Source: Verrucomicrobiales bacterium (lineage in GTDB: Bacteria > Verrucomicrobiota > Verrucomicrobiia > Limisphaerales > UBA9464). Taken from it: a DNA stretch of 64,000 bases. Below the pieces are notes generated by a model that ran no database searches, was not told the origin of the DNA, and saw only the letters and a list, made by a program, of their open reading frames with translations. The stretch covers positions 1,612 through 65,611 of the forward strand of contig JAIXUV010000208.1 in assembly GCA_027483345.1 (NCBI GenBank). Direction: 5' to 3'. The position numbers and the translations under genes were made by a program. Of the stretch, positions 1-60,223 are shown one piece after another; the stretch's first letter is position 1, and every line of letters begins with the position of its first letter.

Positions 1-140
1 TGTCGAGCGAGTTGAAGGATTGTAAATTGCGATGAGATTTGCTGCAAGGTGATTGTTGTGAAAAGCGCAGAGCCTATATTTTAAAGAGTTTAGGACTGCG
101 CTTTAAAGCGTGAATAGCTTCTATATTGGGCGAAATCTTA

Positions 141-179
141 AAAAGTTAAACCTCTCTCCCGCGATTGGTGAAAGAGAGG
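141..179 (-). terminator. putative rho-independent terminator after the 207..1319 ORF
   Basis: Inverted repeat cctctct (151-157) / agagagg (173-179) with a 15-nt loop. On the minus strand it is followed by a T-rich run (complement of aaaaagttaaa, 141-150), about 28 nt past the ORF stop. Confidence 0.4.
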
Positions 180-206
180 ATGGGTTGCGGAAAGGCCTGG
201 CTCGGC

Positions 207-1319
207 TTATCTTTGGTATGCCTTATAAAGGACCCTCAAAGTATGGGCGAATATCGATTGACCATCAACATCTCCGGCTCGGCCGGAAATTTTGATCGTG
301 TCTCCTCTATTTACTTTGTAGCGAAACGACACCGAGGTGGCTGTGGCGCGTTCGTATCTCAATCCGTCAACGTAAGTGTCTCCGTCGTTTGGATCTCGAA
401 TGGTAATCGAACCACTGCTCCAAACAACTACTCCGTTTACTAGTAGATTTCCTGTAATGAATCGCGGTTCCCGAACCGCTTTGCGCGCCACAACTCCATA
501 AGTTATTGCGATTTCTTGATCTAATTCGACAATTAGAGGTTCCATATCGTTGTAATAGTAGGTGGCTGGACCGTCTTGTGGTCTTCTTGCGCCTGAATCG
601 TAAGGAGCGTCAGCTGGAAACTGTTTTGTGACAATTCTCATCTCTGGCCCCAATGCCTCGCCGCGAACTAGATATGAAAAATCGGGAGCGTTGTCCGAGG
701 TGATTAGAATGTAAACGTCCCTGTGAATTGAGCCTCTTCGATAAGTTCTCCTAATTACGTGTCCAGTATTTGATATTAAGGTTGGTGTGGAGCCATCAAG
801 TGGCTGCAATACTATGGGGGGGGCATCTTGAGACTCGGCGAGTTGAATGACCTTCCATGAATGAAAACTATTCGTTCTTGCCTGCGGGCCTGGAGATTTG
901 AATGTTGCTTCTACTTTGATAAATGCGCCGTCAGGCTCAACTTTGATGCTTAATCCGTTTAAATCGCTACTTCCTTCAAATTTCAACTTAATGCATCCCA
1001 GCCATCCGTCGATAACATCTTTATTTGCAATTCGCTGAAATGTAGTTATGAAATGTTCCGAGGTGAATTGTCTTGAATCAAGTGTTTCGACTGCTCTTTT
1101 CCATTGATTGAATCTTTCGGTGTTGTCACTTGCTCCAAAAGATACAGGGAATCCGTCTATTGGGAGGCTTAAATTAACTCCGCTTTTTGCAAGGTTTCGC
1201 GCTTGATTCTCATCTAGGCTTTTAAATTTCTTTAACAGTTGCTCGGATACAGACGTGTTGCTATCAAAGTGAAATTCGTCAAAAATCCCGCCTTTTAGTA
1301 GATCTGAACAGTTTTCCAT
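207..1319 (-). CDS. hypothetical protein (370 aa), AT-rich, no recognisable domain
   Basis: Long uninterrupted ORF in an AT-rich segment with ordinary, non-low-complexity amino-acid composition. No motif I can assign. Contains a C8 tract on the coding strand (G8 at 816-823). Confidence 0.6.
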   Translation of the reverse strand: MENCSDLLKGGIFDEFHFDSNTSVSEQLLKKFKSLDENQARNLAKSGVNLSLPIDGFPVSFGASDNTERFNQWKRAVETLDSRQFTSEHFITTFQRIANKDVIDGWLGCIKLKFEGSSDLNGLSIKVEPDGAFIKVEATFKSPGPQARTNSFHSWKVIQLAESQDAPPIVLQPLDGSTPTLISNTGHVIRRTYRRGSIHRDVYILITSDNAPDFSYLVRGEALGPEMRIVTKQFPADAPYDSGARRPQDGPATYYYNDMEPLIVELDQEIAITYGVVARKAVREPRFITGNLLVNGVVVWSSGSITIRDPNDGDTYVDGLRYERATATSVSFRYKVNRGDTIKISGRAGDVDGQSIFAHTLRVLYKAYQR

Positions 1320-1435
1320 ATTGAGTAATTATGATCGTTTCGGCTGCAACGTCTCCTCGCATTAGAATCAAATATCGTCCGTGCGATTCCGGACGAGCGT
1401 AGGAGTCGTGTTTTTTCTGTCAACGATGCAGTTGC

Positions 1436-1558
1436 TTACGCCCGATTATGCAGTCGACCAAACCTTCCGATCAACCGCGCCGCCGCCGGCTTACCAGCCA
1501 AAGCGCCCAACAGCTCCTCATTCGTCGACACTTCCAACGACCGCACAAACAGACTCAT
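1436..1558 (-). pseudogene. possible RadC-like N-terminal fragment (40 aa)
   Basis: Minus-strand translation is MSLFVRSLEVSTNEELLGALAGKPAAARLIGRFGRLHNRA*. It resembles the helix-hairpin-helix N-terminus of RadC/JAB proteins (..ELLAILLg....A..LL.rFGsL..). It stops where the GC-rich block meets the AT-rich block, and no JAB domain follows. Confidence 0.3.
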
Positions 1559-1979
1559 CGGCACTACCTCCCGAATCACGGGAGATTACCACATTCCGAG
1601 GCGTTCTGGAAGGCTTGGCGGGAGCGGACCTGAAGCTGTCCGCTTTCCGCCCTGCCCAGTCCGAATCGCCCCAGGTCCGGCAACATTTCACGGACTCCCA
1701 CTGGACGGGTTTCCCGTGCCCGGAATAGGTTCACTCATTGCCGTGAAGTTCTTGTTCCGGAATCTGTTGGCCTCGCCGGTAGGTGAGCGTTCCCACCAAG
1801 GCCAAGCCCTCCTCTTCAATGCCCCAAGACTCGTCCGCCACGATCGGCTTCGAGGCCAAGGACTGGCTCATCGCTGACATTGCAACGCGCGTGAGCGCGG
1901 GCCCTGGCTGCGCAGCCACTCGACTGGACATGTGCGGAGCGCCAGTCCTACGGAGCCACTTCACGACCCCTCTTTGACT

Positions 1980-2840
1980 ATGGCCCGAATACCCCAAGGA
2001 AATGCCGGCACGGCGAACATCGGCTTTGAACAGAAGCTGTGGTTGGCGGCGGATAAACTGAGTTCGAACATGGACGCGGCGGAGTACAAGCACGTCGTCC
2101 TTGGCCTGATATTCCTCAAGTACATCTCCGACACCTTCCAGGAACACCGCGCCAAGCTCCTCGCCGGACAAGGAGAGTACGCCGGCGCCAAAGCCGAGGA
2201 CCCGGACGAGTACAAGGCAGAGAACATCTTCTGGGTGCCTTCCGAGGCCCGGTGGGCTCACCTCCAGGCGACCGCCCATCTCCCGGCCATCGGTCGGATC
2301 GTGGACGACGCCATGATCGCCATCGAGCGCGACAACCCAAGGCTCAAGGGAGTGCTTCCAAGAGACTACGCTCGCCCGGCACTCGACAAGCACCGCCTCG
2401 GCGAGCTGATCGACCTCATTGCCACCATCAGCCTCACCGTCGCCAGCGAGGGTGAGAAGACCCATCGTTCCGTCGATCTACTGGGCCGTGTGTACGAGTA
2501 CTTCCTCACCCGCTTCGCCAGCGCCGAGGGCAAGAACGGTGGCCAGTTCTACACGCCGTCTTGCGTCGTGCGCTGCCTCGTCGAGATGCTCGCACCTTAC
2601 AAGGGCCGCATCTACGACTCCGCTTGCGGCTCCGGCGGCATGTTCGTTCAGTCGGAGAAGTTCGTGGAATCCCACGGCGGCAAGATCGGCGACATAAGCA
2701 TCTACGGTCAGGAGAGCAACCCCACCACCCGACGGCTGGCGATCTTGAACCTCGCCATCCGGGGCATCGAGGCGGACTTCGGACCGGAACAGGCGGACAC
2801 CTTCCGCTACGACCTCCCTCAGTTGCGGGCAATCTATTGA
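1980..2840 (+). pseudogene. hsdM: truncated type I R-M methyltransferase subunit (HsdM N-terminal two-thirds, lacks NPPF)
   Basis: Has the HsdM N-domain ([36 protein letters not shown]), [11 protein letters not shown] and AdoMet motif [11 protein letters not shown]. The frame ends ...[15 protein letters not shown] before the NPPF catalytic motif. Composition turns AT-rich at about 2822-2845. Confidence 0.85.
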
Positions 2841-2929
2841 ATGGCTTGCCGTTGATTTAAGCCTGATATCCAATCTGGCTTGGCTATTCGTAGCAAAGTC
2901 TAGCTATTTAAAACAAAGTGATAAAAAAT

Positions 2930-5900
2930 ATGCCTAGCAATGATCAGAACAAATTCTTTCAGCAGGCCGAAGGATGGATTAATGAATCTCTGCCCGATGG
3001 ATTGGCGTTATCTAAGACGCTCCTAGACCAAGCGACTATAATCGGACAACTAACATGGTCCCCAGACGGGCGAGTTCTTGCCGCTTCGGGAAACGAAGGT
3101 TTGATTTGCTGGGAGGTTCGTTCTTGGAGGTGCCTCCCTCCGTTTGAAGGTCAAATGCGCCAATTCAATTCTATCGCTTTTGATCCGACAGGAGAAGTAA
3201 TCGCCTGTGGCAATGGTAATTATTCAGTAAACCTGTGGGAAGTGGCGAGTCAGAGGTTGCTAGTTTCTCTGAGTGGCCACAACAATAAAGTTGGTAGCGT
3301 ATCTTGGTCCCCGAATGGTGATCATTTTGCCTCGGCAATGATCGATGGGACCATTAGTATCTGGGACACAAAAACTTGGAATTCCCGAAGAATCGGTCCT
3401 TGGAAAGGTTTGAAACCTCAAAAAAAGCGAAAGGGTGTGATTTGCAGTGTTGCTTGGTCTTGGAACTCAAAACAAATTTCAGGAGCTTCGTACGACCTAG
3501 CAATTTGGGATCCAAACACAGGGAGTCGAATTTTTTTGGTACAAACTGATCATATTCTCTTGGACGTTGCATGGTCGCCAAGAATTCAAACGCATTTGCT
3601 GGCGGCAGGCTACTCGAACAATAGTGTTCAAATCTGGAACGCGAACACCAGAACCAAGTTTAGAGATCTTGAAGGTCATACATCTTCAGTGCAGTATGTA
3701 GCCTTTTCCTCCGACGGAACACTGCTTGCCTCCAGTTGTAGTAATAGTATAAGATTGTGGCGCTGTTCCGATTGGCAAGAAGTTGCTGTGATTAGAAATC
3801 GCCCCTTGGGACTATTTGGTCCTATTGAGTTTCATCCTACTTTGCCTCTCCTTGCTGCAGCTCAATCCAACATCGCGAAGGGCAACTCCCAAAGTGCTAT
3901 CCATATTCTGAAACTGGACCTGGCTCAGCTGCTTGGGCAGCCGCACAAAAGTGCGCACACTTACACTAGTGCAAAGATTGTATTGGTTGGTGAAACTAAT
4001 GTAGGAAAGTCGTATCTGGCACATCGTATGGCGACCGGAGAGCCACCGAAAGAGGGGGCTATCAATAGTACGCATGGCATGAAGTTTTGGCCGTTGGAAC
4101 CCGAACGGCTCAGCCCTAGGGCGAAGGCTCCCGTAGGAGAACGTCGCGATGTGGTGCTGTGGGACATGGGCGGGCAAGATGAATATCGGCTGATCCACCA
4201 ATTGTTCCTGCACGACACGACACTTGCGCTCGTGCTTTTTGATCCTACCCGAGGAGCTCCGGCTTTCAAAGAAGTAGAGACATGGAATAAGGCTCTAGAA
4301 AACCAACTCAGAGGCCGAACTGCGGTAAAGCTGCTTGTTGGTTCCAAACTTGATAAGCTATCAACGACCATTGACCGGCAAGCAGTGCAGCATCTGGTCA
4401 AAGTTTGCGGCTTTAGAGATTACTACGAAACGAGTTCACTCACTGGCCGCGGAGTCGTAGAACTGAGTGAAGCAGCTGCCGAAGCAATTGATTGGGATGG
4501 TCTGGGCAAGACTACTCGTCCGGAGCTGTTTCAAGCTATTCGGGATGAGATTGCGCGCCAGAGAAGTAATGGTGTAGTCGTGGTGCTCTTCGATGATCTT
4601 GATCGAGAACTACAGACCAACGAGGAATCTAGAACCTTCTCCTTGATGAAGCACGTCGTGGCTATGTCGTCCAATCCTGAAGCAGGAACCGAGGCCTTGA
4701 ATGCAGTCTGCAGCCAGCTTGCAAGCCAAGGGATCATCGCCCGTGCCAAAACCAGCAGTGGCAAGAGTGCGCTGATCCTCCGGGTCGAAGAAGTAGAACG
4801 CTACGCCGGCTCGCTCATCATTGCAGCCAAGAACAATCCACGTGGCGTTCCTGGATTGGAGCTTCGAAGTATCGCCCATGAGAACTTTTCTCTTCCAGGA
4901 ATATCGGACCAAGATCGTTTGCCACGCGCGCAAGAAAAACCGGTGCTCGAATGCACCGTGCAACTTCTGCTGGAACACGGCATCTGTTTCAAGCACGAAG
5001 GTTTGCTCATCTTCCCGTCACTCTTCGCGCACGCGTCTGAAGAAGCTGATGGCAAACTGCAGCATTCTGTTTCACTCTACTACGATTTCGCGGGTGCTAT
5101 TGATAACATCTATGCCTCTATGGTTGCATGGCTCGTGTTGTCCAAGGAGTTCGGCAAGGTGCGGCTCTGGTTGGACCGGGCGGAGTTTGAAGTTAAGGGC
5201 GGCGGCCTGTGCGGTCTGCGCAAAGTGGGTCGACTCGGTGGTTTTGCTCATGTGGATGTCTATTTCGAGAAAGCGACAGGCGATCGGCAGCGCATGGAGT
5301 TCATCAGTTTTGTAGAAGACCATCTGGCGCGGAATGGAGTGGAGATTCGCGAACATGTGGCAATTAAGTGCTCCTGTAATAACGAGTTCTCGGAGGACAC
5401 CCTGCGCCAACGTATCGCTCGTGGTGAAAAGAACGTGGTGTGCCCCGTGTGCGAAACCCGGCACAACTTGAGCGAAGGTGCGACTGCGTCTCGCGAACGT
5501 GATATGTCGATCAACCAACATACTTGGGCGCTGCGAACGCGAATCGAAGAGCTCCGACAAATTCTCACGGAGAGTGTGGTTCAAGTGCTAGGTAAAGCTA
5601 AAGCAGCGAATCCAGCCACCGATCCGATTCGAATTCTGCATCTCAGCGATCTCCATTTCACCGCGGCGACGCCAGTAAAGGCGAGGCTGCGTTGGCTGAT
5701 TGATGACATCAAACAGCATGGCGGTTTGGGATTCAATGAGTTGGACTATTTGGTGATCTCTGGCGACTTCACTGACAAGGGAAGTCTTGATGGATTTGAG
5801 AAGGCGTATGAGTTCGTGTCCAGATTGACAGAGGAGTTCGGTTTATCTGCCGAGCGTTGCATTTTTGTACCGGGAAATCACGACGTGAGCGACTTAGAAG

Positions 5901-6652
5901 AGGCATACGATTGGAAGAGAAAGCCGGATGGCCTTGAGGACGGCGAGTGGGTAAAGCAGGGCGAGATTTATCTTGTCAGGAATGCGGCGAAGTATCCGTT
6001 GCGCCTGAAGGCATTTTCGGACGACTTCTTTCACAAGTTTGTCCAGCGGCCCTACCCGTTAGATTTTGCGGCTCAGGGATTTACCGTGCCATTTTGGGAG
6101 ACTGGCCTGCAGTTCCTGATGCTCAACTCTTGCTGGCAGATAGACGGCTTTCACCGGAAGCGGTCAGGCGTGCATGTTGAAGCTGTCGCCAACGCAATCA
6201 AAGAGGCTCAGATACAGGAGAAAGCAGCGCGCGCTGCGGGCCAATTGTCAAGTGGCAAGCCGCTATTACGGATCGCGGTATGGCATCACGCCATCGCTGG
6301 ACCTGAGCAAATGACCAACACTAATTTTCTCGCCAATTTACAAAAGGCAGGCGTGCGATTAGGAATGCATGGCGATATTCATGAGTTACGTCGGGATGTA
6401 GTTGGACACTGGCATGAGCATGGAAAACAGCTCCATATCCTAGGTGCTGGGAGTTTCGGCTCGCCGCCAGAAAATCGGCCCGAGTCGGTGCCACGACTCT
6501 ACAACGTCATTGAGATCGATCGCGATTTGACTTCAATGAAGGTGCACACAAGGCAGCAGCCCAAGGTCGATGGCGCTTGGACTGGGTGGCACGAGTGGCC
6601 AAATCCCAAAGATCCTAGTAGCAAACTCTCGTACTACCGCGTTGACTTCTAA
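2930..6652 (+). CDS. WD40 - Roc-type small GTPase - COR-like - zinc ribbon - calcineurin-like metallophosphoesterase multidomain protein (ROCO-like)
   Basis: WD repeats (GHNNKVGSVSWSPNGDHFASAMIDGTISIWD; EGHTSSVQYVAFSSDGTLLASSCSNSIRLWR). GTPase motifs: G1 GETNVGKS (3989-4012), G3 DMGGQD (4163-4180), G4 SKLD (4343-4354), G5 ETSS. COR-like stretch (HGICFKHEGLLIFPSLF). CxC-x21-CxxC zinc ribbon (5369-5452). MPE motifs LSDLHF, SGDFTDKG, PGNHD, WHH, HGDIHE. The ORF opens at GTG 2918; ATG 2930 is the preferred start. Confidence 0.85.
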   Translation: MPSNDQNKFFQQAEGWINESLPDGLALSKTLLDQATIIGQLTWSPDGRVLAASGNEGLICWEVRSWRCLPPFEGQMRQFNSIAFDPTGEVIACGNGNYSVNLWEVASQRLLVSLSGHNNKVGSVSWSPNGDHFASAMIDGTISIWDTKTWNSRRIGPWKGLKPQKKRKGVICSVAWSWNSKQISGASYDLAIWDPNTGSRIFLVQTDHILLDVAWSPRIQTHLLAAGYSNNSVQIWNANTRTKFRDLEGHTSSVQYVAFSSDGTLLASSCSNSIRLWRCSDWQEVAVIRNRPLGLFGPIEFHPTLPLLAAAQSNIAKGNSQSAIHILKLDLAQLLGQPHKSAHTYTSAKIVLVGETNVGKSYLAHRMATGEPPKEGAINSTHGMKFWPLEPERLSPRAKAPVGERRDVVLWDMGGQDEYRLIHQLFLHDTTLALVLFDPTRGAPAFKEVETWNKALENQLRGRTAVKLLVGSKLDKLSTTIDRQAVQHLVKVCGFRDYYETSSLTGRGVVELSEAAAEAIDWDGLGKTTRPELFQAIRDEIARQRSNGVVVVLFDDLDRELQTNEESRTFSLMKHVVAMSSNPEAGTEALNAVCSQLASQGIIARAKTSSGKSALILRVEEVERYAGSLIIAAKNNPRGVPGLELRSIAHENFSLPGISDQDRLPRAQEKPVLECTVQLLLEHGICFKHEGLLIFPSLFAHASEEADGKLQHSVSLYYDFAGAIDNIYASMVAWLVLSKEFGKVRLWLDRAEFEVKGGGLCGLRKVGRLGGFAHVDVYFEKATGDRQRMEFISFVEDHLARNGVEIREHVAIKCSCNNEFSEDTLRQRIARGEKNVVCPVCETRHNLSEGATASRERDMSINQHTWALRTRIEELRQILTESVVQVLGKAKAANPATDPIRILHLSDLHFTAATPVKARLRWLIDDIKQHGGLGFNELDYLVISGDFTDKGSLDGFEKAYEFVSRLTEEFGLSAERCIFVPGNHDVSDLEEAYDWKRKPDGLEDGEWVKQGEIYLVRNAAKYPLRLKAFSDDFFHKFVQRPYPLDFAAQGFTVPFWETGLQFLMLNSCWQIDGFHRKRSGVHVEAVANAIKEAQIQEKAARAAGQLSSGKPLLRIAVWHHAIAGPEQMTNTNFLANLQKAGVRLGMHGDIHELRRDVVGHWHEHGKQLHILGAGSFGSPPENRPESVPRLYNVIEIDRDLTSMKVHTRQQPKVDGAWTGWHEWPNPKDPSSKLSYYRVDF

Positions 6653-6808
6653 TTGTGCCAGCGGAGTAGCCGTGAACATTGTAGATTCTGTGCAGACGGA
6701 AGCATGAATGATTGGCTGCTCGCGGCAGAGGAGATGCTCCGAGTAACCGGGAATCCAACCGTTCACCTGGCATCGAATTTCCGATAGTCTCTTCCAGTCC
6801 TCTCACCC

Positions 6809-8350
6809 ATGCTCAACGGCGAAATTCGCAGTAAAGTTGATGCCCTTTGGAATGCCTTCTGGTCCGGGGGCATAGCCAATCCGCTCGAGGTCATCGAGCA
6901 GATCACGTATCTGCTCTTCTTGAAGCGCTTGGATGATCTCCACACCCTAGAGGAGAACAAGGCGGCGCGCCTGAAACTTCCCCAGCTCGAACGCCGCGTT
7001 TTTCCCGAGGGCAGGGATCCCCGGGGTAGGGACTATTACGATTTCCGGTGGTCCCGCTTCAAACACCTTGAAGCCAAGGAGATGTTCGATGTGGTGAACG
7101 ACCATGTGTTCCCCTTCCTTCGCACGCTCGGTGGTGACAGCTCCACCTACGCGCACCACATGAAGGACGCACGCTTCACCATCCCGACGCCGGCACTGCT
7201 GGCCAAAGTGGTGGATATGATCGACGGCGTGCCCATGGAGGACCGCGATACCAAGGGCGACCTCTACGAGTACATGCTGGGGAAGATCGCCAGCGCCGGG
7301 CAAAACGGGCAGTTCCGCACTCCCCGGCACATCATCCAGCTCATGGTCGAGCTGACCGCGCCGTCCCCGCGGGACGTTATCTGTGATCCCGCCTGTGGCA
7401 CTGCCGGCTTCCTTGTGGCGGCTGGGGAGTACCTGCGCCAGCACCACCCTGGGATTCTCCGCGGCCCCGAACTCAAGGAACACTTCCACCACCACCTGTT
7501 CCATGGATTCGACTTCGACAACACCATGCTCCGCATCGGCAGCATGAATCTGCTGCTGCACGGCGTGGATAATCCCAATATCCGCTACCGCGATTCGCTG
7601 GGACAGGATCACTCGGGAGAGGAGGAGAAGTACACGCTGATCCTAGCCAATCCGCCTTTCGCCGGATCGCTCGACTACGAGAACTGCGCCAAGGACCTCC
7701 AGCAGATCGTGAAGTCGAAGAAGACCGAACTGCTCTTCCTCGCTCTCTTCCTGCGCCTGCTCAAGTCCGGCGGACGCGCCGCTGTCATCGTGCCCGACGG
7801 CGTGCTCTTCGGCTCGTCCAACGCGCACAAGACCCTGCGCCAGATCCTTGTCGAGGAACAGAAGCTGGACGCCGTCATCTCCCTGCCCGGCGGCGTTTTT
7901 AAGCCCTACGCCGGCGTCTCCACCGCCATTCTCCTCTTCACCAAGACCAACTCCGGTGGCACGGACCACGTCTGGTTCTACGATGTGGACGCCGACGGCA
8001 TGTCGCTCGACGACAAACGCACCGAACTACTCCCGCCGGAGAAGCTCGGCCCAGTGCCCAGGACTGCGCTCTCGGCCGACGACCACGCGAAGAACAATCT
8101 GCCCGACATCCTCGCCCGCTGGACGCAGCGCGACCGGGCCGAGCGCCAAAATCCGCGCACCGCACAGAGCTTCTGTGTGCCCAAGGCCGACTTGGCCGCG
8201 CAGGGCTACGACCTCTCGCTCAACCGCTACAAGGAAGTCTTCCACGCCGAAGTCGCGCACCGCCCGCCCGCTGAAATCCTGAAAGCCCTCGGCCAACTGG
8301 AGGCGGTGATTCAGCAGGGCATGAAGGAACTGGAGGAGATGCTGAAGTGA
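6809..8350 (+). CDS. hsdM: type I restriction-modification system methyltransferase subunit M
   Basis: HsdM_N-like start (KVDALWNAFWSGGIANPLEVIEQITYLLFLKRLDD), GQFRTPRHI, motif I DPACGTAGFL and motif IV LANPPFAGS. Its stop overlaps the hsdS start (GTGA at 8347-8350). Confidence 0.95.
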   Translation: MLNGEIRSKVDALWNAFWSGGIANPLEVIEQITYLLFLKRLDDLHTLEENKAARLKLPQLERRVFPEGRDPRGRDYYDFRWSRFKHLEAKEMFDVVNDHVFPFLRTLGGDSSTYAHHMKDARFTIPTPALLAKVVDMIDGVPMEDRDTKGDLYEYMLGKIASAGQNGQFRTPRHIIQLMVELTAPSPRDVICDPACGTAGFLVAAGEYLRQHHPGILRGPELKEHFHHHLFHGFDFDNTMLRIGSMNLLLHGVDNPNIRYRDSLGQDHSGEEEKYTLILANPPFAGSLDYENCAKDLQQIVKSKKTELLFLALFLRLLKSGGRAAVIVPDGVLFGSSNAHKTLRQILVEEQKLDAVISLPGGVFKPYAGVSTAILLFTKTNSGGTDHVWFYDVDADGMSLDDKRTELLPPEKLGPVPRTALSADDHAKNNLPDILARWTQRDRAERQNPRTAQSFCVPKADLAAQGYDLSLNRYKEVFHAEVAHRPPAEILKALGQLEAVIQQGMKELEEMLK

Positions 8351-9444
8351 AATGGAACACTGTAAGATTCGAAGACGGTGTCTATTCTCGCAGCTCCGGC
8401 GCAACTGGTCTGGCTCAAAGCCTTTGGGAAGAAGGCGGGCGCTATCCTGTGATTGGCCAAGGAGCCAAATTCATCGAAGGTAGAACCAACCGCGCAGATC
8501 TTTTGGTCACACCCAATCCAGCCGTCGTTCTTTTCGGTGGGCATACCCGTCGCACAAAATTCGTAGATATCCCGTTTGTACCAGGTCCAAACGTCAAGAT
8601 CCTCGAACCTAAGGGAATTCTAGACGCGAAGTTCCTGTTCTATTTTCTCGAGCAGCTTCCAATCGAGAGCCGCGGCTACGCCGATCACTTTCCTGAAGTT
8701 CGACGGAGTTCAATCCCTGTGCCGACGCTGCTCCAGCAGCGGCGGATTGCGGAGGTGTTGGACCAAGCGGAGGCGTTGCGGGCCAAGCGTCGCGCTGCCC
8801 TCGCCCAACTCGACTCCCTACCCCAATCCCTCTTCCTCGACCTCTTCGGCGACCCAATAGTTAATCCGAAGATGTGGCCACGGAAACAACTCTCCGAAAT
8901 CGGCACACTTGACCGGGGAGTATCCAAGCATCGCCCACGCAACGATCCGGAGCTCTTAAATGGGCCGTATCCCTTGGTGCAGACTGGCGAAGTCGCAAAC
9001 TGCAACGGATACATCCGCGAATACCACAGCACCTATTCCGAAATTGGCCTGCGGCAGAGCAAACTGTGGCCTTCAGGAACTCTTTGTATTACGATTGCTG
9101 CGAACATCGCAAAGACCGGAATTCTAACATTCGACGCATGCTTTCCAGACAGCATCGTGGGATTCCGTGCTGAAGATCCCGCGATGGTAGAGTTCGTGCG
9201 AGGCTGGCTTTCGTTTCTCCAAAAGTCGCTCGAAGACGCCGCTCCCGAATCGGCTCAAAAGAATATCAACTTGGCTCTGTTACGAAACCTCGCGATTCCA
9301 CTTCCCCCAATCGGATTGCAGCGCGAATTCGCCCGGCGAGTGACAGCGGTGGAGGCGCTGAAGTCGGCGCAGCGCGCGTCGCTGGCGGAGCTGGACGCGC
9401 TCTTCGCCACCCTCCAGCACCGCGCCTTCAAAGGAGAACTCTAA
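8347..9444 (+). CDS. hsdS: type I R-M specificity subunit S (two TRDs, two conserved regions)
   Basis: TRD1, then central conserved helix (QQRRIAEVLDQAEALRAKRRAALAQLDSLPQSLFLDLFGDP), then TRD2, then C-terminal conserved helix (LQREFARRVTAVEALKSAQRASLAELDALFATLQHRAF). Translationally coupled to hsdM. Confidence 0.9.
   Translation: MKWNTVRFEDGVYSRSSGATGLAQSLWEEGGRYPVIGQGAKFIEGRTNRADLLVTPNPAVVLFGGHTRRTKFVDIPFVPGPNVKILEPKGILDAKFLFYFLEQLPIESRGYADHFPEVRRSSIPVPTLLQQRRIAEVLDQAEALRAKRRAALAQLDSLPQSLFLDLFGDPIVNPKMWPRKQLSEIGTLDRGVSKHRPRNDPELLNGPYPLVQTGEVANCNGYIREYHSTYSEIGLRQSKLWPSGTLCITIAANIAKTGILTFDACFPDSIVGFRAEDPAMVEFVRGWLSFLQKSLEDAAPESAQKNINLALLRNLAIPLPPIGLQREFARRVTAVEALKSAQRASLAELDALFATLQHRAFKGEL
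9322..9427 (+). repeat. direct repeat copy A (hsdS 3' conserved region)
   Basis: About 105 nt, cgcgaattcgcccggcgagtgacagcggtggaggcgctgaag...ccagcaccgcgcc. Matches 10566-10670 with about 8 mismatches by hand alignment. Confidence 0.85.
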
Positions 9445-9452
9445 ACCAACAA

Positions 9453-10529
9453 ATGAAGCTGCGTTGTTCAAATAAGGAACATGGTTTTGAACCTCTGCTG
9501 GAGAAAATACCGGCTGCTAAGCGAGTCACCATCTTGAGCTATTCGCTCGACGAGAATCCCAAAAGCTATTTGTGGGAAACGTTACACAAACTACCAGCAG
9601 CAAGTGATTTGACGGTCATCACGAATATTCCGGGCAGGTGGGATTCCTACGGTCGAAATCAGACGTCGAAGATGAAGGATCGATTTGATGCATATTTGGA
9701 TAACCTCGCCGCGGAGAAATTTGAATGTGCGTTTGAAGTTTACTTCTCCTTCAATAACCATGCGAAAGTGCTTGTCGTCGATGACATGGCCTACGTCGGC
9801 TCAGCGAATTTCACAGAAGCGTCAGCGCAGAAATGGGAGGCAGGGGTAATCCTCTCCGATAAAAGTGAAGTTGATGAGCTTCAGGCATTCATAAATAGCA
9901 TTCGCGCTTCGTCAATTCCTATGCTCAAGGCTGCCACTTCCAAGGAGGCGCGCCCTCTTCTAAAGCTGCTGCGGTGGAGTTTTGAAATCATCCGCTCTGT
10001 TCGCGAGGAAAATGGTTTCATCCTGTCGGACGATCAACACTGGATCGACGATCCGGAACGGAGTCAAAGAGAAAGCGTCCAGATCTCAGATGGACTAAGA
10101 GCATTCTTGAGCGAGTGCCGAACCGCAGCTGAGGCGTTACTGAAAAGATGTGATGGAGACCAAGAAGTCCTTAACGTAGATATTTTGCTCGATGTAATTG
10201 GTTTCGTCCGCTACTTCGATGAGCAGGATTACAACGATTCTCTCGCGAAACCATTCGATGAATCAGCTCAATCAAGCCACCTAGTCGAAAAGCTGCTTAT
10301 CGAATGTTCCAATGACGCCAACGTGGACGATGTGATGCGCCACCCGGAATACCATGAGCAACTTGAAGCAGCCAGAAGCGCCAGCGAAAAGGAACTGGAT
10401 GGAGCTGTTGTCAAGGCCGTAGACGATCTCGTAAAATACATAGAAAAGACTATCAGTAAATTGCGGAGTTCATTTGGGCCAGAGGATGTCTCACCTGAAA
10501 TCGACAACACCGGAAGCAAGAATAGATGA
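9453..10529 (+). CDS. PLD-family (single HKD) nuclease-like protein with an uncharacterised C-terminal helical region
   Basis: HKD motif NNHAKVLVVDDMAYVGSANFTEAS (HxK-x4-D-x5-GSxN). AT-rich gene: hand counts of single 60-nt lines give about 37-50% GC. Confidence 0.8.
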   Translation: MKLRCSNKEHGFEPLLEKIPAAKRVTILSYSLDENPKSYLWETLHKLPAASDLTVITNIPGRWDSYGRNQTSKMKDRFDAYLDNLAAEKFECAFEVYFSFNNHAKVLVVDDMAYVGSANFTEASAQKWEAGVILSDKSEVDELQAFINSIRASSIPMLKAATSKEARPLLKLLRWSFEIIRSVREENGFILSDDQHWIDDPERSQRESVQISDGLRAFLSECRTAAEALLKRCDGDQEVLNVDILLDVIGFVRYFDEQDYNDSLAKPFDESAQSSHLVEKLLIECSNDANVDDVMRHPEYHEQLEAARSASEKELDGAVVKAVDDLVKYIEKTISKLRSSFGPEDVSPEIDNTGSKNR

Positions 10530-10679
10530 GCAATCTCCCCTCTTCCTCAATCCCAAGCACTTAGGCGCGAACTTGCCCGGCGAGCGACTGCGGTGGAGGT
10601 GTTGAAGTCGGCGCAGCGCGCGTCGCTGGCCGAGCTGGACGCGCTCTTCGCCAACCTCCAGCACCGCGCCCTTAATTGA
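10530..10679 (+). pseudogene. hsdS: orphan remnant of an hsdS 3' end (about 49 codons)
   Basis: Translates to ISPLPQSQALRRELARRATAVEVLKSAQRASLAELDALFANLQHRALN*, paralleling the hsdS tail IPLPPIGLQREFARRVTAVEALKSAQRASLAELDALFATLQHRAF. No TRD or start codon lies upstream. Confidence 0.75.
10566..10670 (+). repeat. direct repeat copy B (hsdS 3' conserved region)
   Basis: Partner of 9322-9427. GC-rich island between two AT-rich genes. Confidence 0.85.
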
Positions 10680-10684
10680 GAATT

Positions 10685-11836
10685 ATGAACCTGTCATCCT
10701 CATGCTTTAAGGACCAAAAACTCCAAAGGCACATTGAGAAAAATGGTAAGGTGGGGAGTTGCGATGGGACGGGAGATAATTATGTGAAGGTGGTTGCGGC
10801 AAATGCTCTCAGTTCGCTATTCAAACCGCTGCTTGATCTGTACGAGCCATTTCGCGGTTCGACTTGGGATTACTTGCATACTCTTTCGGGTAACACATTG
10901 TTTGATTGCATTCAGGACGACGATGGATGGGAGGTTTTTGCTAAAGCCATTTCTCCCGAAGTCGGGTGTCAAATCTTGGATGCAATTCGCGATGTCACCA
11001 GTCCCGACGGAAGTATTCGAAGTGATGAGGAATGGGTTAACAAAAACCAGTTTTATCAGGCGATGCAGCTCGGTTGGTGGGACGCGTTTTCCAAGCAGTT
11101 GAAGCACGCCCGCCGATTCATTCCTGATGTCGGCAATAAAAGCGTGGGTGACCCGCGCAAAGTTCTTTGTGAACACTTGAGCGAGTTCGAGTACCCGCTT
11201 TTAGTGGGCAAGACGCTTTATCGAGCGCGAATCGGGTGGGATGACAAATCGGCGGTTGGACATTCGCTTCCAATCGCCCCCGGCAAAGAAATGGGTGCCC
11301 CTCCACCGGAGAAGGCTACAGCCGGCCGGGCCAATCCTGCAGGCGTGAGCTACTTGTATGTTGCGGAGCAAGAGGCGACGGCGGTGCAAGAAGTGCGAGC
11401 GTACGTCGGCGCAAAAGTTACTGTGGCTAAACTAGAGGTCACCAAACCGTTGAGGTTGGTAAATGTTGCAAAAACAAGGCGCGTTTTCAGTCCATTCCTG
11501 CATCCCAATTTAAAAAATGTTCTGTTTGCTTACGACATCCTTGCTGTGCTCAACGAAAAGCTGTCACGACCAGTTGATCCGAACACAAGCCACCTCGATT
11601 ACCTGCCGACTCAATATCTCGCCGAGGTTGTGTTAGATTACGGCTACGACGGGATTCGATACAAAAGCGCAGTGTCCGAGGATGGAGTCAATGTCGTGGT
11701 TTTTGACCACGGAAAGACTGCTGTTTTTGAAACGAAGCTGATCGAAGTTACGGCTATGAAGCTGAAGTATCGCGACCTCTCTGGCTACTCACGAGGATCG
11801 CCGAAGTCTCGGATGAAATCGAGAAAATCACTATGA
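10685..11836 (+). CDS. RES-domain protein with a 190-aa N-terminal extension
   Basis: RES signature: R in TAGRANPAGVSYLYV, E in AEQEATAVQEVRAY, S in DGIRYKSAVSEDGVNVVVFD. The N-terminal Cys-containing domain is unassigned. AT-rich. The ORF opens at TTG 10676; ATG 10685 is preferred. Confidence 0.8.
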   Translation: MNLSSSCFKDQKLQRHIEKNGKVGSCDGTGDNYVKVVAANALSSLFKPLLDLYEPFRGSTWDYLHTLSGNTLFDCIQDDDGWEVFAKAISPEVGCQILDAIRDVTSPDGSIRSDEEWVNKNQFYQAMQLGWWDAFSKQLKHARRFIPDVGNKSVGDPRKVLCEHLSEFEYPLLVGKTLYRARIGWDDKSAVGHSLPIAPGKEMGAPPPEKATAGRANPAGVSYLYVAEQEATAVQEVRAYVGAKVTVAKLEVTKPLRLVNVAKTRRVFSPFLHPNLKNVLFAYDILAVLNEKLSRPVDPNTSHLDYLPTQYLAEVVLDYGYDGIRYKSAVSEDGVNVVVFDHGKTAVFETKLIEVTAMKLKYRDLSGYSRGSPKSRMKSRKSL

Positions 11837-12348
11837 GAAGCTATGCGCTCAAGCCAGCACTCCAAGCGCTTGAGTTCGATGGCGCGCTGCTCGCGCGGGG
11901 CTTCTGGCTCTACGTTTGGGAAATCACAGCCGGGGACGGTGGCACGGTTCACTACGTGGGCCGAACGGGAGACAGTTCCTCGTCCAACGCGCAGTCGCCT
12001 TTTGCCCGGCTCAGCCAGCACCTCGGGAAAAACCAGAACTCCAACGCGCTCAGGAGGAATCTGGAAAAAGCAAAGGTGGTTCCCGAGGAATGCCAGAAGT
12101 TCCGGCTCTTCGCCTGTGGTCCGATCTTTCCGGAGTCCAAGAGTCGAGACGAACACATGCGGTCGCGTGACAGCGTTGCAGCTCTAGAGAAGGCGCTGGC
12201 GGACGCAATGCGCGCGGCGGGCTACGACATGATGAATGAGGTGCGGTCCCGCAAGACTCCTGACCGTCAGTTGTGGCAAGTGGTCGTTGGCACCTTTGGG
12301 GCGCGGTTTCCAAAGCTCCAAAATCTGCCCTCGCCCTGCGATTCGTGA
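11833..12348 (+). CDS. GIY-YIG nuclease-like protein
   Basis: FWLYVWEITAGDGGTVHYVGRTGD resembles the UvrC-type GIY...YVG motif. It is followed by a conserved Arg (FARLSQHL) and a Glu helix (VAALEKALADAMRAAGYDMMNE). ATGA overlap with the upstream RES gene; GTGA overlap with the downstream RES gene. Confidence 0.6.
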   Translation: MRSYALKPALQALEFDGALLARGFWLYVWEITAGDGGTVHYVGRTGDSSSSNAQSPFARLSQHLGKNQNSNALRRNLEKAKVVPEECQKFRLFACGPIFPESKSRDEHMRSRDSVAALEKALADAMRAAGYDMMNEVRSRKTPDRQLWQVVVGTFGARFPKLQNLPSPCDS

Positions 12349-12941
12349 CCAAGTTCCACCCCAACCCACGGTTCCGAGAGTTCCGCGACCTCCTTGCGGC
12401 AAACACGGACCTGTTCCAGCCGTGGTCCGGCACTCTGTTCCGGTTCCAAGCGGTGGATTTTCCCGCCCCGGAGGACGTGCTGAGCGGTGCGGGCGCGAAA
12501 TGGCGTGGCGGACACTGGAACCCGCCCGGAGTGCCGACACTCTACGGCAGCACCACGGACACGGCGGCCCTAGAGGAGGGCAAGGCGAACGACCGCTATG
12601 CCGGGATCGTTACCCGTTGTCCCCGCCTGTTGGTGGCGGTGGAAGCCCGTTTGGAACGAGTTCTGGACCTCGGCGCCGCTCTGGTGCGACGTCGGCTCGG
12701 CCTGAAACTGGTGGAGTTGCTGGCAGGGGACTGGCGGAAGCTGACGGATGCGGGCCAGGAGAGCCTGACCCAAGGCATGGGCCGGGCAGTCTACGTGGCG
12801 GGCGGAAGCGGCCTCCTCGCGCGATCCGCGGCCTGCAATGGCGGGGTCAATGTCGTGGTGTTCCCCGGCAATCTCCGACCGGGAGAAAGCCTGGCGGTGG
12901 TGGAGGAGGGGAAGCTGCGCAGGCTGACCCGTGGAAAATGA
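12345..12941 (+). CDS. RES-family toxin (RES-Xre type)
   Basis: SGAGAKWRGGHWNPPGVPTLYGSTTDTAALEE and GLLARSAACNGGVNVVVF match the RES-domain layout. GTG 12345 overlaps the preceding stop. The track ORF opens at ATG 12273, which would overlap the previous gene by 76 nt. Confidence 0.75.
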   Translation: MTKFHPNPRFREFRDLLAANTDLFQPWSGTLFRFQAVDFPAPEDVLSGAGAKWRGGHWNPPGVPTLYGSTTDTAALEEGKANDRYAGIVTRCPRLLVAVEARLERVLDLGAALVRRRLGLKLVELLAGDWRKLTDAGQESLTQGMGRAVYVAGGSGLLARSAACNGGVNVVVFPGNLRPGESLAVVEEGKLRRLTRGK

Positions 12942-13386
12942 AATTGTTACCTGCAAAAGTGCAGGTTATGTTGCGAGCAGTGTTATGCGTACCGTTGCCA
13001 AGCCAAAGAACGTCGCCGGAAGCCTGACCCAATTCCGGTTCAGCCATCGTGGAGCCGGGGACTTCTCCCAGCTCATGCGGGTCTATCGGGAGAAGTTCCA
13101 TCTCGCCCAGCCGGTGGTGGTGCGGTTGACCGGTTTTTCGCCGCGTTCGGTGGCCAAATGGGCGCAGGGCGAGACGCCGTCGCAGAAGCAGGAGAAGGCC
13201 CTGGTGGAGATGGACCGGTTGCTGGACGGCTTGGCGCGGGTGATGGAAGCCCAGGAGATCGGTCGCTGGATGACCACGGCCAACCCCGCGTTCGATGGTT
13301 CGACCCCGGCGCAGGTGGTCGAGCGGGGTGAAGCCGACCGCATCTGGCGCATGCTTTATGACGTGGAGTCAGGTCAGCCGGGCTGA
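12931..13386 (+). CDS. Xre/MbcA/ParS-like antitoxin (DUF2384 C-terminal domain)
   Basis: The C-terminus IGRWMTTANPAFDGSTPAQVVERGEADRIWRMLYDVESG is typical of the DUF2384 toxin-binding domain. The N-terminal part (LTGFSPRSVAKWAQGE) is HTH-like. The start is GTG 12931 (overlapping the RES stop) or ATG 12985. Confidence 0.8.
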   Translation: MENEIVTCKSAGYVASSVMRTVAKPKNVAGSLTQFRFSHRGAGDFSQLMRVYREKFHLAQPVVVRLTGFSPRSVAKWAQGETPSQKQEKALVEMDRLLDGLARVMEAQEIGRWMTTANPAFDGSTPAQVVERGEADRIWRMLYDVESGQPG

Positions 13387-13491
13387 ACGCCTGCCGATGG
13401 CCACAGCCTCCATTTCGGTTTGCCGACGAAGCTGTTCACCCTCTTCGCAGCCCGCGAGCACGGAGCCGTCCTATAAGAACGTTGAGCCCTC

Positions 13492-14445
13492 GTGCAACGG
13501 ATTCTAAGTCATCACCTCTGGCGGGAAATCTCTGCCAGGTCGACAAAAGCCAAGCGACGCCAGGCTGCCATCGCATACGTCACCGAGGACCTTCTTCGCT
13601 TCAAGCGGGGTGACCTGTTGGTGACCGATGCCTCCAGGGCGGCAATCCGTTCGGGCGAGACCAGCGCTAAGCTCCTGGCGACTTTGTTGCGGCGGGGTGT
13701 GCGGGTGCATTCCTGCGCAGGCCTGCATGCCAAGGCCATCCTGCTCGACGAGGTGGCTGTGATCGGTTCGGGCAACATGTCGCGGGCTTCACGTTCCACC
13801 CTGATTGAAGCGGCTGTGATGACCGACGCCCCTTCGACCGTCAGCGGGGTTGCTTCGCTGATTGCCCAGCTCGCTCAACAGTCACCCGAACTGGACCGTG
13901 ACGCCGTGGCTGGTCTTTGCGCGATCAAGGTGGTTCGCCGTGGCGGGCCGAACGTCGTGGCAAAACGCAACCTTCAGCCAAAGATAAAGCCTCTTGGACA
14001 CAATGCGTGGCTGGTGGCGGTGCATGAATTCGACGAGGATTTGGTTCGAAAGGAACAGAGGTTGGTGGAAGCGACGATGGCGGAGTTGGTTCAACGGCAT
14101 GGCTGTCGGGCGGATTCCATCGGATGGATCCGATGGGACGGCGCTGGCCCCTTTCTGAAGGCGGGTAAACCCGGTGATCGCATCATTCAGGTCTACAGCC
14201 GGAAGGACGGCTCAAGGCCGGTGTCAGTCCTTAAGTCAGTTGCCGTCCTGGATCGCAAGCGCCGGGCTGGAACAACGTTTGTCTTCGTGGCGCAACCGTC
14301 TGGACGAAGGCCAGAGATGTCCTTCGCGAACTTCAATCGGTTCTTGAAAAAACTCGGTGTGGGGCGACCGCCAGGGGCAACCACGGAACGCCTGCTTGAT
14401 CCCAGCCTTGCCGATTCCATTTCAAGTGGATGGAACTCGGCCTAA
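13492..14445 (+). CDS. PLD-family (single HKD) nuclease-like protein
   Basis: HKD motif GLHAKAILLDEVAVIGSGNMS in the N-terminal 130 aa. The C-terminal 180 aa are unassigned. GTG start. Confidence 0.8.
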   Translation: MQRILSHHLWREISARSTKAKRRQAAIAYVTEDLLRFKRGDLLVTDASRAAIRSGETSAKLLATLLRRGVRVHSCAGLHAKAILLDEVAVIGSGNMSRASRSTLIEAAVMTDAPSTVSGVASLIAQLAQQSPELDRDAVAGLCAIKVVRRGGPNVVAKRNLQPKIKPLGHNAWLVAVHEFDEDLVRKEQRLVEATMAELVQRHGCRADSIGWIRWDGAGPFLKAGKPGDRIIQVYSRKDGSRPVSVLKSVAVLDRKRRAGTTFVFVAQPSGRRPEMSFANFNRFLKKLGVGRPPGATTERLLDPSLADSISSGWNSA

Positions 14446-14475
14446 TCCGCAACCTCCGGCTTCTGCCGAGTCGCA

Positions 14476-16206: not shown

Positions 16207-16415
16207 AGCGGATGAGTCCACCGACTCTCAACTCTTGACCGGGAATCCGCGAGGGGACACTGCGTGATCTTCCCGCCATCCTTGCCGGCTGAGGAAAGAA
16301 GACGTCGCTGGATCAGGCTTCAAAACGATTACTCGACCGGCAAAATCATTATTTTGAGGGGGCATTCGATCAATTCTGTTACAAGCCCGTCCGGCCGTTT
16401 CGCCGGCCCAGACTC

Positions 16416-19796: not shown

Positions 19797-20033
19797 GATC
19801 CGGTCTGGCTGGAGTCCAACATAGCTCGAACTCTTTGGGAACGCCTGTCCGGATGGCCTACTTTTGGAGCGGAGGGCTTAAGAGTTCCGACACATTCCGA
19901 CAGTCGGCAGGGGCCTCTGTGCGCGATCTGAGCGACTGGGGAGTTTTCGTGTGTAGACTGATAAAATGCTTTTGTTCAGCTGGATACGTGCTGATTTGGG
20001 TTGTTTTCGCGCACGGTTGTCGCACTGAAAGTC

Positions 20034-60131: not shown

Positions 60132-60223
<92 letters not shown>

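Follow-up and report, generated by a model that had tools for sequence, protein, structure and literature searches.

The stretch of DNA analysed here, called the window throughout, is 64,000 nucleotides long (positions 1,612 to 65,611 of the forward strand of contig JAIXUV010000208.1, assembly GCA_027483345.1) and comes from a Verrucomicrobiales bacterium. The subject of this study is one open reading frame (ORF) near its left end, referred to below as the target, whose coordinates are given in Table 1 together with those of its domains and its neighbours. From the N terminus to the C terminus the layout of the encoded protein is WD40, Roc, COR-A, COR-B, zinc ribbon, helix and metallophosphoesterase (MPE), and a protein identical to it is present in the public collection (P0001). 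The original prediction, which was made from the sequence of the window, had called the domains WD40, Roc, COR, zinc ribbon and MPE and had assigned sequence motifs to them. When the motif coordinates were verified by amino acid-to-nucleotide arithmetic on the translation from 2930, all of these motifs were recovered at the nucleotides where they had been placed, and all five domain calls were supported by Pfam or by structure. The Pfam matches of the target to WD40, Roc, Ras and Metallophos all exceed the gathering scores of these families. WD40 and many beta-propeller Pfam models match residues ~30-285, and the count of seven blades was made by motif.

Table 1. Features of the target and of the genes around it (positions in the window; empty cells, nothing reported)
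Feature	Nucleotides	Strand	Residues (aa)	Basis and remarks
Target ORF	2930..6652	+	1,240 aa	Complete from ATG, no internal stop; alternative GTG start at 2918
WD40 beta-propeller, seven-bladed	3002..3904	+	~25-325	Pfam and blade-motif count; presumed ligand sensor
Roc-type small GTPase	3962..4504	+	345-525	Pfam Roc and Ras; G motifs
G1 GETNVGKS	3989-4012	+	354-361	Translation
Switch-I T381		+	381	Translation
G3 DMGGQD	4163-4180	+	412-417	Translation
G4 SKLD	4343-4354	+	472-475	Translation
G5 ETSS		+	500-503	Translation
COR-A-like helical/winged-helix domain	4523..4975	+	~532-682	AlphaFold model and Foldseek
COR-B-like alpha/beta domain	4988..5332	+	~687-801	AlphaFold and Foldseek; includes conserved HEGLLIFPSLF
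Four-cysteine zinc ribbon	5345..5467 (Cys at 5369-5452)	+		C814, C816, C838, C841
Long linker helix (~30 residues) between zinc ribbon and effector	5504..5596	+	~859-889	Secondary structure of both models
Calcineurin-like metallophosphoesterase (MPE)	5627..6634	+	~900-1235	Pfam, NCBIfam, PADLOC, model
hsdM 5' fragment	1932..2840	+		HsdM_N plus positions 2-120 of 311 of N6_Mtase; GC at third codon positions 0.81
hsdM, intact	6809-8350	+		Pfam
hsdS	8347-9444	+		Pfam
PLD nuclease	9453-10529	+		Pfam; PLD proteins weakly DrmC-like (PADLOC)
RES-domain protein	10676-11836	+	386 aa	Pfam
Xre/MbcA/ParS-type antitoxin-domain ORF (C-terminal domain)	12931-13386	+		Pfam
PLD-like ORF	13492-14445	+		Pfam
GmrSD, BrxU/HEC-05-type	14476-16206	+		PADLOC HEC-05, 3e-50
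hsdR	16416-19796	+		Pfam

The GTPase was readily found by sequence, since Roc (PF08477) matches residues 349-475 at E 1e-16 and 61.7 bits and Ras (PF00071) matches residues 349-520 at E 2e-16 and 60.2 bits, both above the cut-off, and the sequence matches of the G domain in the PDB are Rab GTPases and the Roc domain of LRRK2. At least 93% of 120 homologues keep G354, G359, K360, S361, T381, D412, G415, Q416, K473, D475 and S502. The COR region is not visible to Pfam, as no match to COR was obtained with the isolated residues 526-900 even at E<=10, and COR is not among the 25 of 48 Pfam families listed for the full-length protein. An AlphaFold2 model of residues 340-900, built with an alignment of 57 homologues, reached a predicted local distance difference test score (pLDDT) of 84.3 and a predicted TM-score of 0.83, and when it was compared to the PDB with Foldseek the best 24 matches were all ROCO proteins, at E 5e-15 to 3e-10. 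They include LRRK1 (8e05, E 5e-15), LRRK2, 6hlu and Methanosarcina barkeri Roco2 (4wnr), and 23 of the 24 align over 520-608 columns, the exception being the truncated M. barkeri RocCORdC (4wnr) with 367 columns and a TM-score of 0.63. Chlorobium tepidum RocCOR (3dpu_A) matches at E 8e-14 with a TM-score of 0.64 normalised to the length of the RocCOR structure. Ordinary Ras, Rab and Rho GTPases align with the model over only ~180 columns, and the sequence identity in the ROCO matches is just 12-17%. Because only ROCO proteins match the model over its full length, the middle region is, on the predicted structure, a true Roc-COR tandem that has diverged so far in sequence that it can be seen by structure only. 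The COR-like region had been the weakest call of the original prediction, and although Pfam missed it, AlphaFold and Foldseek bore it out and supported the MPE fold as well. After COR-B comes a zinc ribbon of the pattern C814-x-C816-x21-C838-xx-C841, which is modelled as short beta-hairpins; among 58 aligned homologues C814, C838 and C841 never vary, and C816 is the consensus residue.

The C-terminal domain is matched by Pfam Metallophos (PF00149) from residue 900 at E 8e-11, with 43 bits against a cut-off of 21.5. Its motifs LSDLHF, SGDFTDKG, PGNHD, WHH and HGDIHE all lie within residues 900-1152 and supply a complete set of metal ligands (D907/H909, D946, N983/H984, H1119/H1120 and H1147/H1151), which at least 93% of the 120 homologues keep. 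The top NCBIfam match is DS9_1_antiphage at E 1.2e-21, in which residues 862-1186 align with model positions 155-483 of 486, that is, with the entire Cal domain, and DS8_antiphage matches residues 904-986 at E 7e-10. The housekeeping families LpxG (7e-4), SbcD (2e-3) and YaeI (4e-3) are weaker. Three models of PADLOC-DB v2.0.0 match the target and all three do so inside residues 900-1152, namely the CBASS effector model PDLC00736, labelled 'Effector / Endonuclease' (residues 901-1152, 1.7e-13), PDC-S60 (3.5e-13) and PDC-S10. No description of PDC-S60 or PDC-S10 is given in the preprint of Payne et al. (10.1101/2024.01.29.577857). In the Foldseek search with a model of residues 870-1240 (pLDDT 87) the order of matches was Bacillus subtilis YydB, Rv0805, Lmo2642 and SMPDL3A. 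Rv0805 and Lmo2642, which are cAMP/cGMP phosphodiesterases, are thus among the closest solved folds, while Schizosaccharomyces pombe Mre11 is a poor match (E 7e-7, root mean square deviation 17.7 A) far below the nucleotide phosphodiesterases and SMPDL3A. The modelled fold therefore resembles that of nucleotide phosphodiesterases and not that of Mre11, and by its profile matches the MPE appears to belong with the conflict-effector calcineurin-like enzymes of DS-9A/PUA-Cal-HAD and DS-8. A C-terminal calcineurin-like MPE with its full set of metal ligands had been predicted correctly, and it is nearer to validated anti-phage phosphoesterases than had been realised.

More than 800 homologues of the target were found. 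Among the best 120 of these, all have the Roc GTPase and nearly all have the MPE, the partial homologue P0104 having no MPE on record, and a minority of ~840-960 residues has no WD40 domain while the remainder is of ~1,030-1,600 residues. When the median identity to the target was calculated for each domain over 99 homologues, the WD40 domain was the fastest-evolving part at 30%, compared to 68% for Roc, 55% for COR-A, 68% for COR-B, 52% for the zinc ribbon with its helix and 61% for the MPE. Even in the closest homologue the WD40 domain is 59% identical whereas the other domains are 85-89% identical. Such a variable WD40 domain on a conserved core is, to judge from these alignments, receptor-like evolution. 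The family is sizeable yet rare. A search with the COR-zinc ribbon module gave 1,073 clusters at 50% identity among 1.84 billion representatives, and 99 relatives were found among species-representative genomes with a top match of 67% identity. The spread is patchy over at least 10 bacterial phyla and two archaeal lineages. The bacterial phyla include Acidobacteriota, Verrucomicrobiota, Planctomycetota, Myxococcota, Proteobacteria, Cyanobacteria, Bacteroidota, Gemmatimonadota and Armatimonadota, and the archaeal relatives are from Methanothrix and Methanosarcinales.

The effectors carried on this chassis vary. An N-terminal TIR domain is added in L005 and L007 (TIR_2 at 2e-30), and in the Myxococcota members L024, L044, L045, L051, L057 and L064 there is a second, N-terminal MPE (Pfam Metallophos 5e-07), so that two MPE domains bracket WD40-Roc-COR. 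These myxobacterial proteins are of ~1,600-1,860 residues by ORF calls, in which the starts are probably over-extended. In a sister clade of ~30% identity the Roc-COR-zinc ribbon chassis is present with or without WD40 and the MPE is replaced; among the 120 members listed (P0121-P0240) the C terminus is DUF4365 in ~75, a class-III cyclase in ~12 and TIR in ~8. L077 and L078 are examples with DUF4365, and L080-L082 are examples with a class-III adenylate/guanylate cyclase. The second CxxC knuckle of the zinc ribbon is retained in the distant DUF4365 and cyclase clades, and the domain content of the cyclase-bearing forms suggests a ROCO-gated second-messenger output. True effector swaps are confined to this ~30%-identity clade; a swap at the C terminus of closer relatives (L036, L042, L043 and others) was considered and rejected, as MPE is what lies at their C termini. 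One Chthonomonadaceae metagenome-assembled genome (MAG) encodes both L007, a TIR-WD40-Roc-COR-MPE protein, and L077, a WD40-Roc-COR-DUF4365 protein, and L046 and L062 likewise share one MAG. L037 (8144-13737) and L052 (9365-13969), which belong to a MAG of Competibacter and to a deltaproteobacterial one, have the homologue split into two ORFs, WD40-Roc-COR and MPE, with ~1.1-1.2 kb between them, and in L070, from a Methanosarcinales MAG, the homologue is in several pieces. These split or fragmented cases could be insertions, pseudogenes or assembly errors.

The target is compositionally foreign and was acquired horizontally. Its GC content is 0.51 and its GC content at third codon positions (GC3) is 0.52, whereas the GC3 of the hsdM fragment, hsdM and hsdR is 0.81-0.82 and the host backbone is at 0.66-0.70 GC, and within the target the most AT-rich part is the WD40 segment with a GC of 0.47. 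The claim of the original prediction that the gene is AT-richer than its flanks is therefore confirmed. There is also a sharp break in composition in the window, as positions 1-20000 are a mosaic at 51-61% GC and positions 20001-64000 are at 66-70%. The hsdM fragment stops 89 nt before the ATG of the target and an intact type I restriction-modification (R-M) system begins 157 nt downstream of the target, which agrees with the prediction that the gene sits where an hsdM has been truncated, upstream of a type I R-M system. What had to be corrected is the origin of the fragment. It can be aligned with the intact hsdM over 68 residues only, with 41% identity, and because the two are of different lineages the fragment is what remains of another type I R-M system and not a piece of the downstream one. 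At some time, then, the island contained a second type I R-M system or recombined with one. Duplication of hsdM by insertion was rejected because the fragment differs in lineage from the intact hsdM and also from the hsdM beside the homologue P0003, described below, and a transposon-like insertion was rejected because no meaningful direct or inverted repeats flank the target. There is no tRNA near the target, the sole tRNA of the window being a tRNA-Ser GGA at 60132-60220 (- strand).

Type I R-M loci are a known hotspot for embedded defence genes, and the stretch between hsdS and hsdR (9453-16206, + strand) is a textbook case of defences embedded in an R-M system. The HEC-05/BrxU family, to which the GmrSD protein of this stretch is matched, is a validated defence family (preprint 10.1101/2024.01.29.577857). 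With two type I R-M lineages, a GmrSD, two PLD nucleases and a RES protein, the region is a real defence island, and the setting given to the gene in the original prediction stands. Neither the large RES protein nor either of the two PLD proteins matches a named system. At the left edge of the island are two AT-rich ORFs, at 207-1319 (- strand, 370 residues, GC 0.44) and at 1381-1728 (+ strand), for which no Pfam, PADLOC or PDB sequence match was found and which may be further island cargo, and the left boundary of the island falls outside the window. Several long ORFs without a Pfam match in the 20-28 kb region are probably wrong-frame readings in high-GC DNA.

The closest homologue with usable flanks, P0003, which is 73% identical across the core, has the hsdR of a type I system on one side and the hsdM-hsdS of the same system on the other. 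Since the subunits of that system are only 27-30% identical to those of the window, its embedding in an R-M locus is independent of that of the target. Directly upstream of the hsdR that precedes P0003 there is an ORF of 1,143 residues without a Pfam match (L094, 3796-7227, + strand), which may be another embedded or adjacent defence candidate. P0002, which is 79% identical, is followed by a HepT/NTase_sub_bind toxin gene. Among the other homologues, that of Geobacter sp. DSM 9736 lies in a small HNH/CcdAB islet and P0022 in a degraded IS21 region, and P0093 stands with a caspase-TPR protein and a type VI secretion system (T6SS) VgrG region. The caspase (Peptidase_C14)-TPR protein is of 744 residues and is encoded two genes upstream of P0093 in a Blastocatellia MAG (L085, 6066-8300, + strand), and the genes downstream of P0093 form a T6SS VgrG/DUF4123/ClpV-type cluster, so that this is a conflict neighbourhood unlike a classical defence island. 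The family was found in 5 of 72,556 plasmid records and in none of 50,697 phage records. Two conjugative Nostoc plasmids carry a 32%-identical Roc-COR-zinc ribbon-MPE gene amid NACHT genes, a MoxR/'SAV_2336' VMAP system and transposases. On one Nostoc punctiforme plasmid, pNPUN02 (L090, 96336-102406), a MoxR ATPase is followed by a SAV_2336 VMAP protein of 1,237 residues and then by a cGAS/DncV-like nucleotidyltransferase (CD-NTase), and the C-terminal domain of this VMAP protein is 34% identical to the MPE of the target. The order of these genes is a hint that enzymes of the MPE clade may have cyclic (oligo)nucleotides as substrates.

When 917 ORFs flanking 80 homologue loci were clustered they fell into 843 clusters, of which the largest occurred at varying positions and consisted of spurious high-GC ORFs, Ser/Thr kinases, an epimerase and nonribosomal peptide synthetase genes. 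There is no conserved partner gene across the 80 loci and the target family is therefore a single-gene module.

A class of prokaryotic counter-invader systems centred on an AP-GTPase (Roc) and COR has been described earlier in a purely computational classification that counts no fewer than 24 alternative effector domains (Kaur, Iyer, Burroughs & Aravind 2021, eLife 10:e70394, PMC8195603), and the target is a member of this computationally predicted class, with a putative function. As in those systems, a repeat sensor, a Roc-type GTPase and a variable effector are joined in one polypeptide. The same paper noted that several paralogues with different effectors are possible in one genome; the effector position likewise varies among the relatives of the target, and the pairs L007/L077 and L046/L062 are paralogues in one MAG. 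The source data of PMC8195603 list a 'BetaPropeller+AP-GTPase+Calcineurin' protein (NUN13817.1, Myxococcales, 1,598 aa, annotated as a metallophosphoesterase), a 'TIR+LRR+AP-GTPase+COR+Calcineurin' protein and ~20 'BetaPropeller+AP-GTPase' proteins. Compared by description, that is by architecture, length, taxon and annotation, NUN13817.1 is presumably of the same family as the target. The statement in the original prediction that the architecture is undescribed was thus too strong, while its other statement, that the gene is not a named defence system, was upheld, as no PADLOC model spans the whole protein or the part outside the effector, and no curated NCBIfam model covers the protein either. 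The text of PMC8195603 covers forms with leucine-rich repeats (LRR), and the beta-propeller forms are listed there without COR and without a zinc ribbon. What is added here is support from modelled structure for a COR in the beta-propeller forms, where it had not been annotated, a conserved zinc ribbon, a link of the effector to the DS-8 and DS-9/PUA-Cal family, and the independent R-M embedding of close relatives.

The effector relatives are instructive in different ways. DS-8, which was found with DefensePredictor, is a validated single-protein MPP-NACHT anti-phage system in which the catalytic residues of the metallophosphatase (MPP) and an NTPase residue are both needed for defence, and DS-9 consists of an MPP protein and a HAD phosphatase and again needs the MPP catalytic residues (DeWeirdt, Mahoney & Laub, Science 2026, PMC13092281). 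The target resembles DS-8 in that a metallophosphatase of the same clade and a P-loop NTPase switch are in a single protein, and both phosphatases resemble SMPDL3A. It differs from DS-8, which has a NACHT switch and an N-terminal MPP, in having a Roc-COR switch, a C-terminal MPE, a WD40 domain and a zinc ribbon. In vitro, PUA-Cal-HAD turns dADP into dAMP and also cleaves NAD+; the system depletes dNTPs and causes abortive infection, and it has a PUA-like sensor of m6-dAMP, an obligatory HAD phosphatase partner, and forms hexamers and filaments (preprint 10.64898/2026.01.15.699771). The Cal domain of this DS-9/PUA-Cal-HAD/Metis group is the best profile match of the target effector, but the target lacks a PUA domain, a HAD gene and any conserved neighbour, and its control would be by a GTPase. 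According to papers that cite its founding description (Nicastro et al. 2023), the Calcineurin-CE family is proposed to target nucleotides.

The characterised ROCO proteins, namely C. tepidum Roco, for which GTP-driven monomerisation has been described (PMC11052575), M. barkeri Roco2, LRRK1/LRRK2 and DAPK1, have the same Roc-COR tandem fold, and the G motifs of the target are complete. Unlike these proteins, the target has an N-terminal WD40 domain and not LRR, a phosphoesterase and not a kinase as output, and an extra Cys4 zinc ribbon after COR-B. A ROCO protein as the regulatory or activating part of a bacterial cell-death or defence module is found in the Runella gasdermin system, which includes a Roc-COR-CHAT protease (Johnson et al., bioRxiv 10.1101/2021.06.07.447441), but there the CHAT protease acts on a separate gasdermin and two genes are needed, whereas in the target the effector is a fused phosphoesterase. 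The likeness to Avs/bNACHT proteins lies in the repeat sensor, the NTPase switch and the swappable effector. Avs/bNACHT families also use DUF4365 and TIR effectors. They are built on a STAND AAA+-type ATPase, and the target has a Ras-like small GTPase with COR; no STAND family is among its Pfam, NCBIfam or PADLOC matches. Accordingly, the logic of a repeat sensor, an NTPase switch and a hydrolytic effector that was proposed originally was upheld, and its assignment to the STAND/Avs type was not, because the switch is a small GTPase of Roc-COR structure. We found no publication in which a ROCO protein was tested for phage defence.

Taken together, the target is probably a stand-alone immune or conflict receptor of the ROCO class, similar in kind to the nucleotide-binding leucine-rich repeat (NLR) receptors, and we put it forward as a candidate for this role. 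The chance is about even that it works as an anti-phage receptor in which a GTPase, in place of a STAND ATPase, is the gate. We favour an immune receptor because the effector is kin to DS9_1 and DS8 and is matched by PADLOC models of defence effectors, because the median identity of the WD40 domain is 30% against 52-68% in the rest of the protein, and because DUF4365, TIR and cyclases are swapped for the MPE or added on the same chassis. The defence-island context of the target, P0003, P0002 with its HepT gene and the Nostoc plasmids argues in the same direction, as do the foreign composition, the patchy and rare distribution and the prior prediction in PMC8195603. A probable sequence of events is that the gene arrived by horizontal transfer and came to lie next to a type I R-M locus, and that in uninfected cells its product would be kept inactive, probably as a dimer formed through COR and fixed in one nucleotide state, by analogy to C. 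tepidum Roco. A phage-derived ligand would then bind to the WD40 propeller and shift the nucleotide or oligomeric state of Roc-COR, again by analogy to C. tepidum Roco, and this shift would unmask or assemble the phosphoesterase. The phosphoesterase in turn would hydrolyse a substrate of the nucleotide type, presumably a free nucleotide such as a deoxynucleoside di- or triphosphate (dNDP/dNTP), NAD+ or a cyclic nucleotide, whereby phage replication would be starved or the infection aborted.

Several points weigh against an immune receptor. The DS9_1 match scores 77 bits against an equivalog cut-off of 420 bits and the DS8 match 37 bits against 790 bits, and because both scores are far under the cut-offs these matches point to kinship and not to membership. 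The substrate known from DS-9/PUA-Cal-HAD cannot simply be carried over to the target because there is no HAD partner at the target. The association with defence genes across the family is thin. Relatives of the HsdM, HsdS, HsdR, PLD, RES and GmrSD proteins of the window were found by blastp within 10 kb in none of the 80 homologue loci, by which a family-wide association with type I R-M systems is rejected. PADLOC gave strong matches in few of the 148 flanking ORFs at 17 loci (CBASS-type E1-E2 in 2-4 ORFs and JAB, mad2 and caspase in 2 each). P0010, P0020, P0008 and P0142 lie in an ordinary metabolic or housekeeping context. The expectation that homologues would gather near defence systems was hence weakly borne out, with none of the 80 loci on one side and P0003, independently inside a type I R-M locus, on the other. 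Members of the family concentrate in soil bacteria that have large genomes and a complex development, and in such organisms ROCO and WD40 proteins could have signalling tasks as well. The cyclases on the sister chassis together with an MPE that resembles phosphodiesterases of cyclic nucleoside monophosphates (cNMP) fit plain cyclic-nucleotide signalling equally well. No sigma-70-like promoter was found upstream of the target on the + strand, which is uninformative for a non-model host.

The main alternative, which we regard as unlikely, is that the protein has a non-immune signalling function in which a cue sensed by the WD40 domain acts through the ROCO GTPase on an MPE that works as a class-III-type cNMP or cyclic dinucleotide (c-di-NMP) phosphodiesterase, as part of developmental or behavioural signalling in complex bacteria, the location in the island being incidental. 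The folds of Rv0805 and Lmo2642 would suit such an enzyme, and the ~12 class-III cyclases among the 120 sister proteins listed would make a symmetrical theme of making and breaking cNMP. Many homologues stand amid ordinary genes, beside two-component systems or kinases, and the family is enriched in Myxococcota, Acidobacteriota, Cyanobacteria and Planctomycetota. On the other hand, DUF4365, which is nuclease-like and present in the majority of the sister clade, and TIR are hallmark immune effectors and not signalling outputs, and the best profile matches of the MPE are validated anti-phage proteins and not housekeeping phosphodiesterases. Cyclases are used in defence as well, as in Pycsar. Signalling also accounts poorly for a sensor domain that diversifies far faster than the core, for the foreign composition and the defence-island location, for the insertion of a close homologue into another type I R-M locus independently, and for a distribution that is rare and patchy and includes archaea, unlike that of a conserved signalling pathway.

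It is less probable still that the protein is an immune receptor whose MPE is a DNA or RNA nuclease, similar to Mre11/SbcD or to the 'endonuclease' of CBASS, and does not act on free nucleotides. The PDLC00736 match, the weak NCBIfam match to SbcD and the presence of S. pombe Mre11 among the Foldseek matches could be read in this way, and on the sister chassis the same position is usually held by the nuclease-like DUF4365. However, the Mre11 match is the poor one described above, the 'endonuclease' label in PADLOC is apparently an annotation and not the result of an assay, and the profile that matches from end to end is that of DS-9A/PUA-Cal, whose Cal domain acts on dADP and NAD+. Lastly, it is very improbable that the gene has no independent function and is either a passenger that is inactive or in decay or a subunit accessory to the neighbouring type I R-M system, for although an hsdM remnant and an intact hsdM flank it at short distances on the same strand, and some homologues (L037, L052 and L070) are split or fragmented, its ORF is intact over 3.7 kb with all catalytic and metal-binding residues preserved, the family has no conserved partner and mostly no R-M genes nearby, and there is no relation between the two R-M systems found beside close homologues.

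Prokaryotic ROCO proteins, the relatives in bacteria of the Parkinson's disease kinase LRRK2, have served almost entirely as biochemical models, and many of them have been predicted by computation to be immune receptors. The target is a clean test case for an immune role, being intact, a single gene, located in a defence island and equipped with an effector whose family was shown in 2025-2026 to be anti-phage. If the protein turned out not to be immune, this would temper the practice of inferring defence from domain architecture alone. If the immune receptor that we favour is real, it would be the first experimentally tractable ROCO immune sensor and would extend bacterial NLR-like immunity by a GTP-switch class. 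Its effector would then be a member of Calcineurin-CE that works without a HAD partner, which would imply a different substrate or a different activation, for example through an oligomerisation state that is controlled by GTP. It would also provide a bacterial model for how the sensing of a ligand is coupled to the nucleotide cycle of Roc-COR. Finally, an immune role would give an evolutionary rationale for the presence of Roc-COR in eukaryotic cell-death and immunity proteins, and the Roc-COR switch of LRRK2 and DAPK1 would derive from prokaryotic immune receptors.

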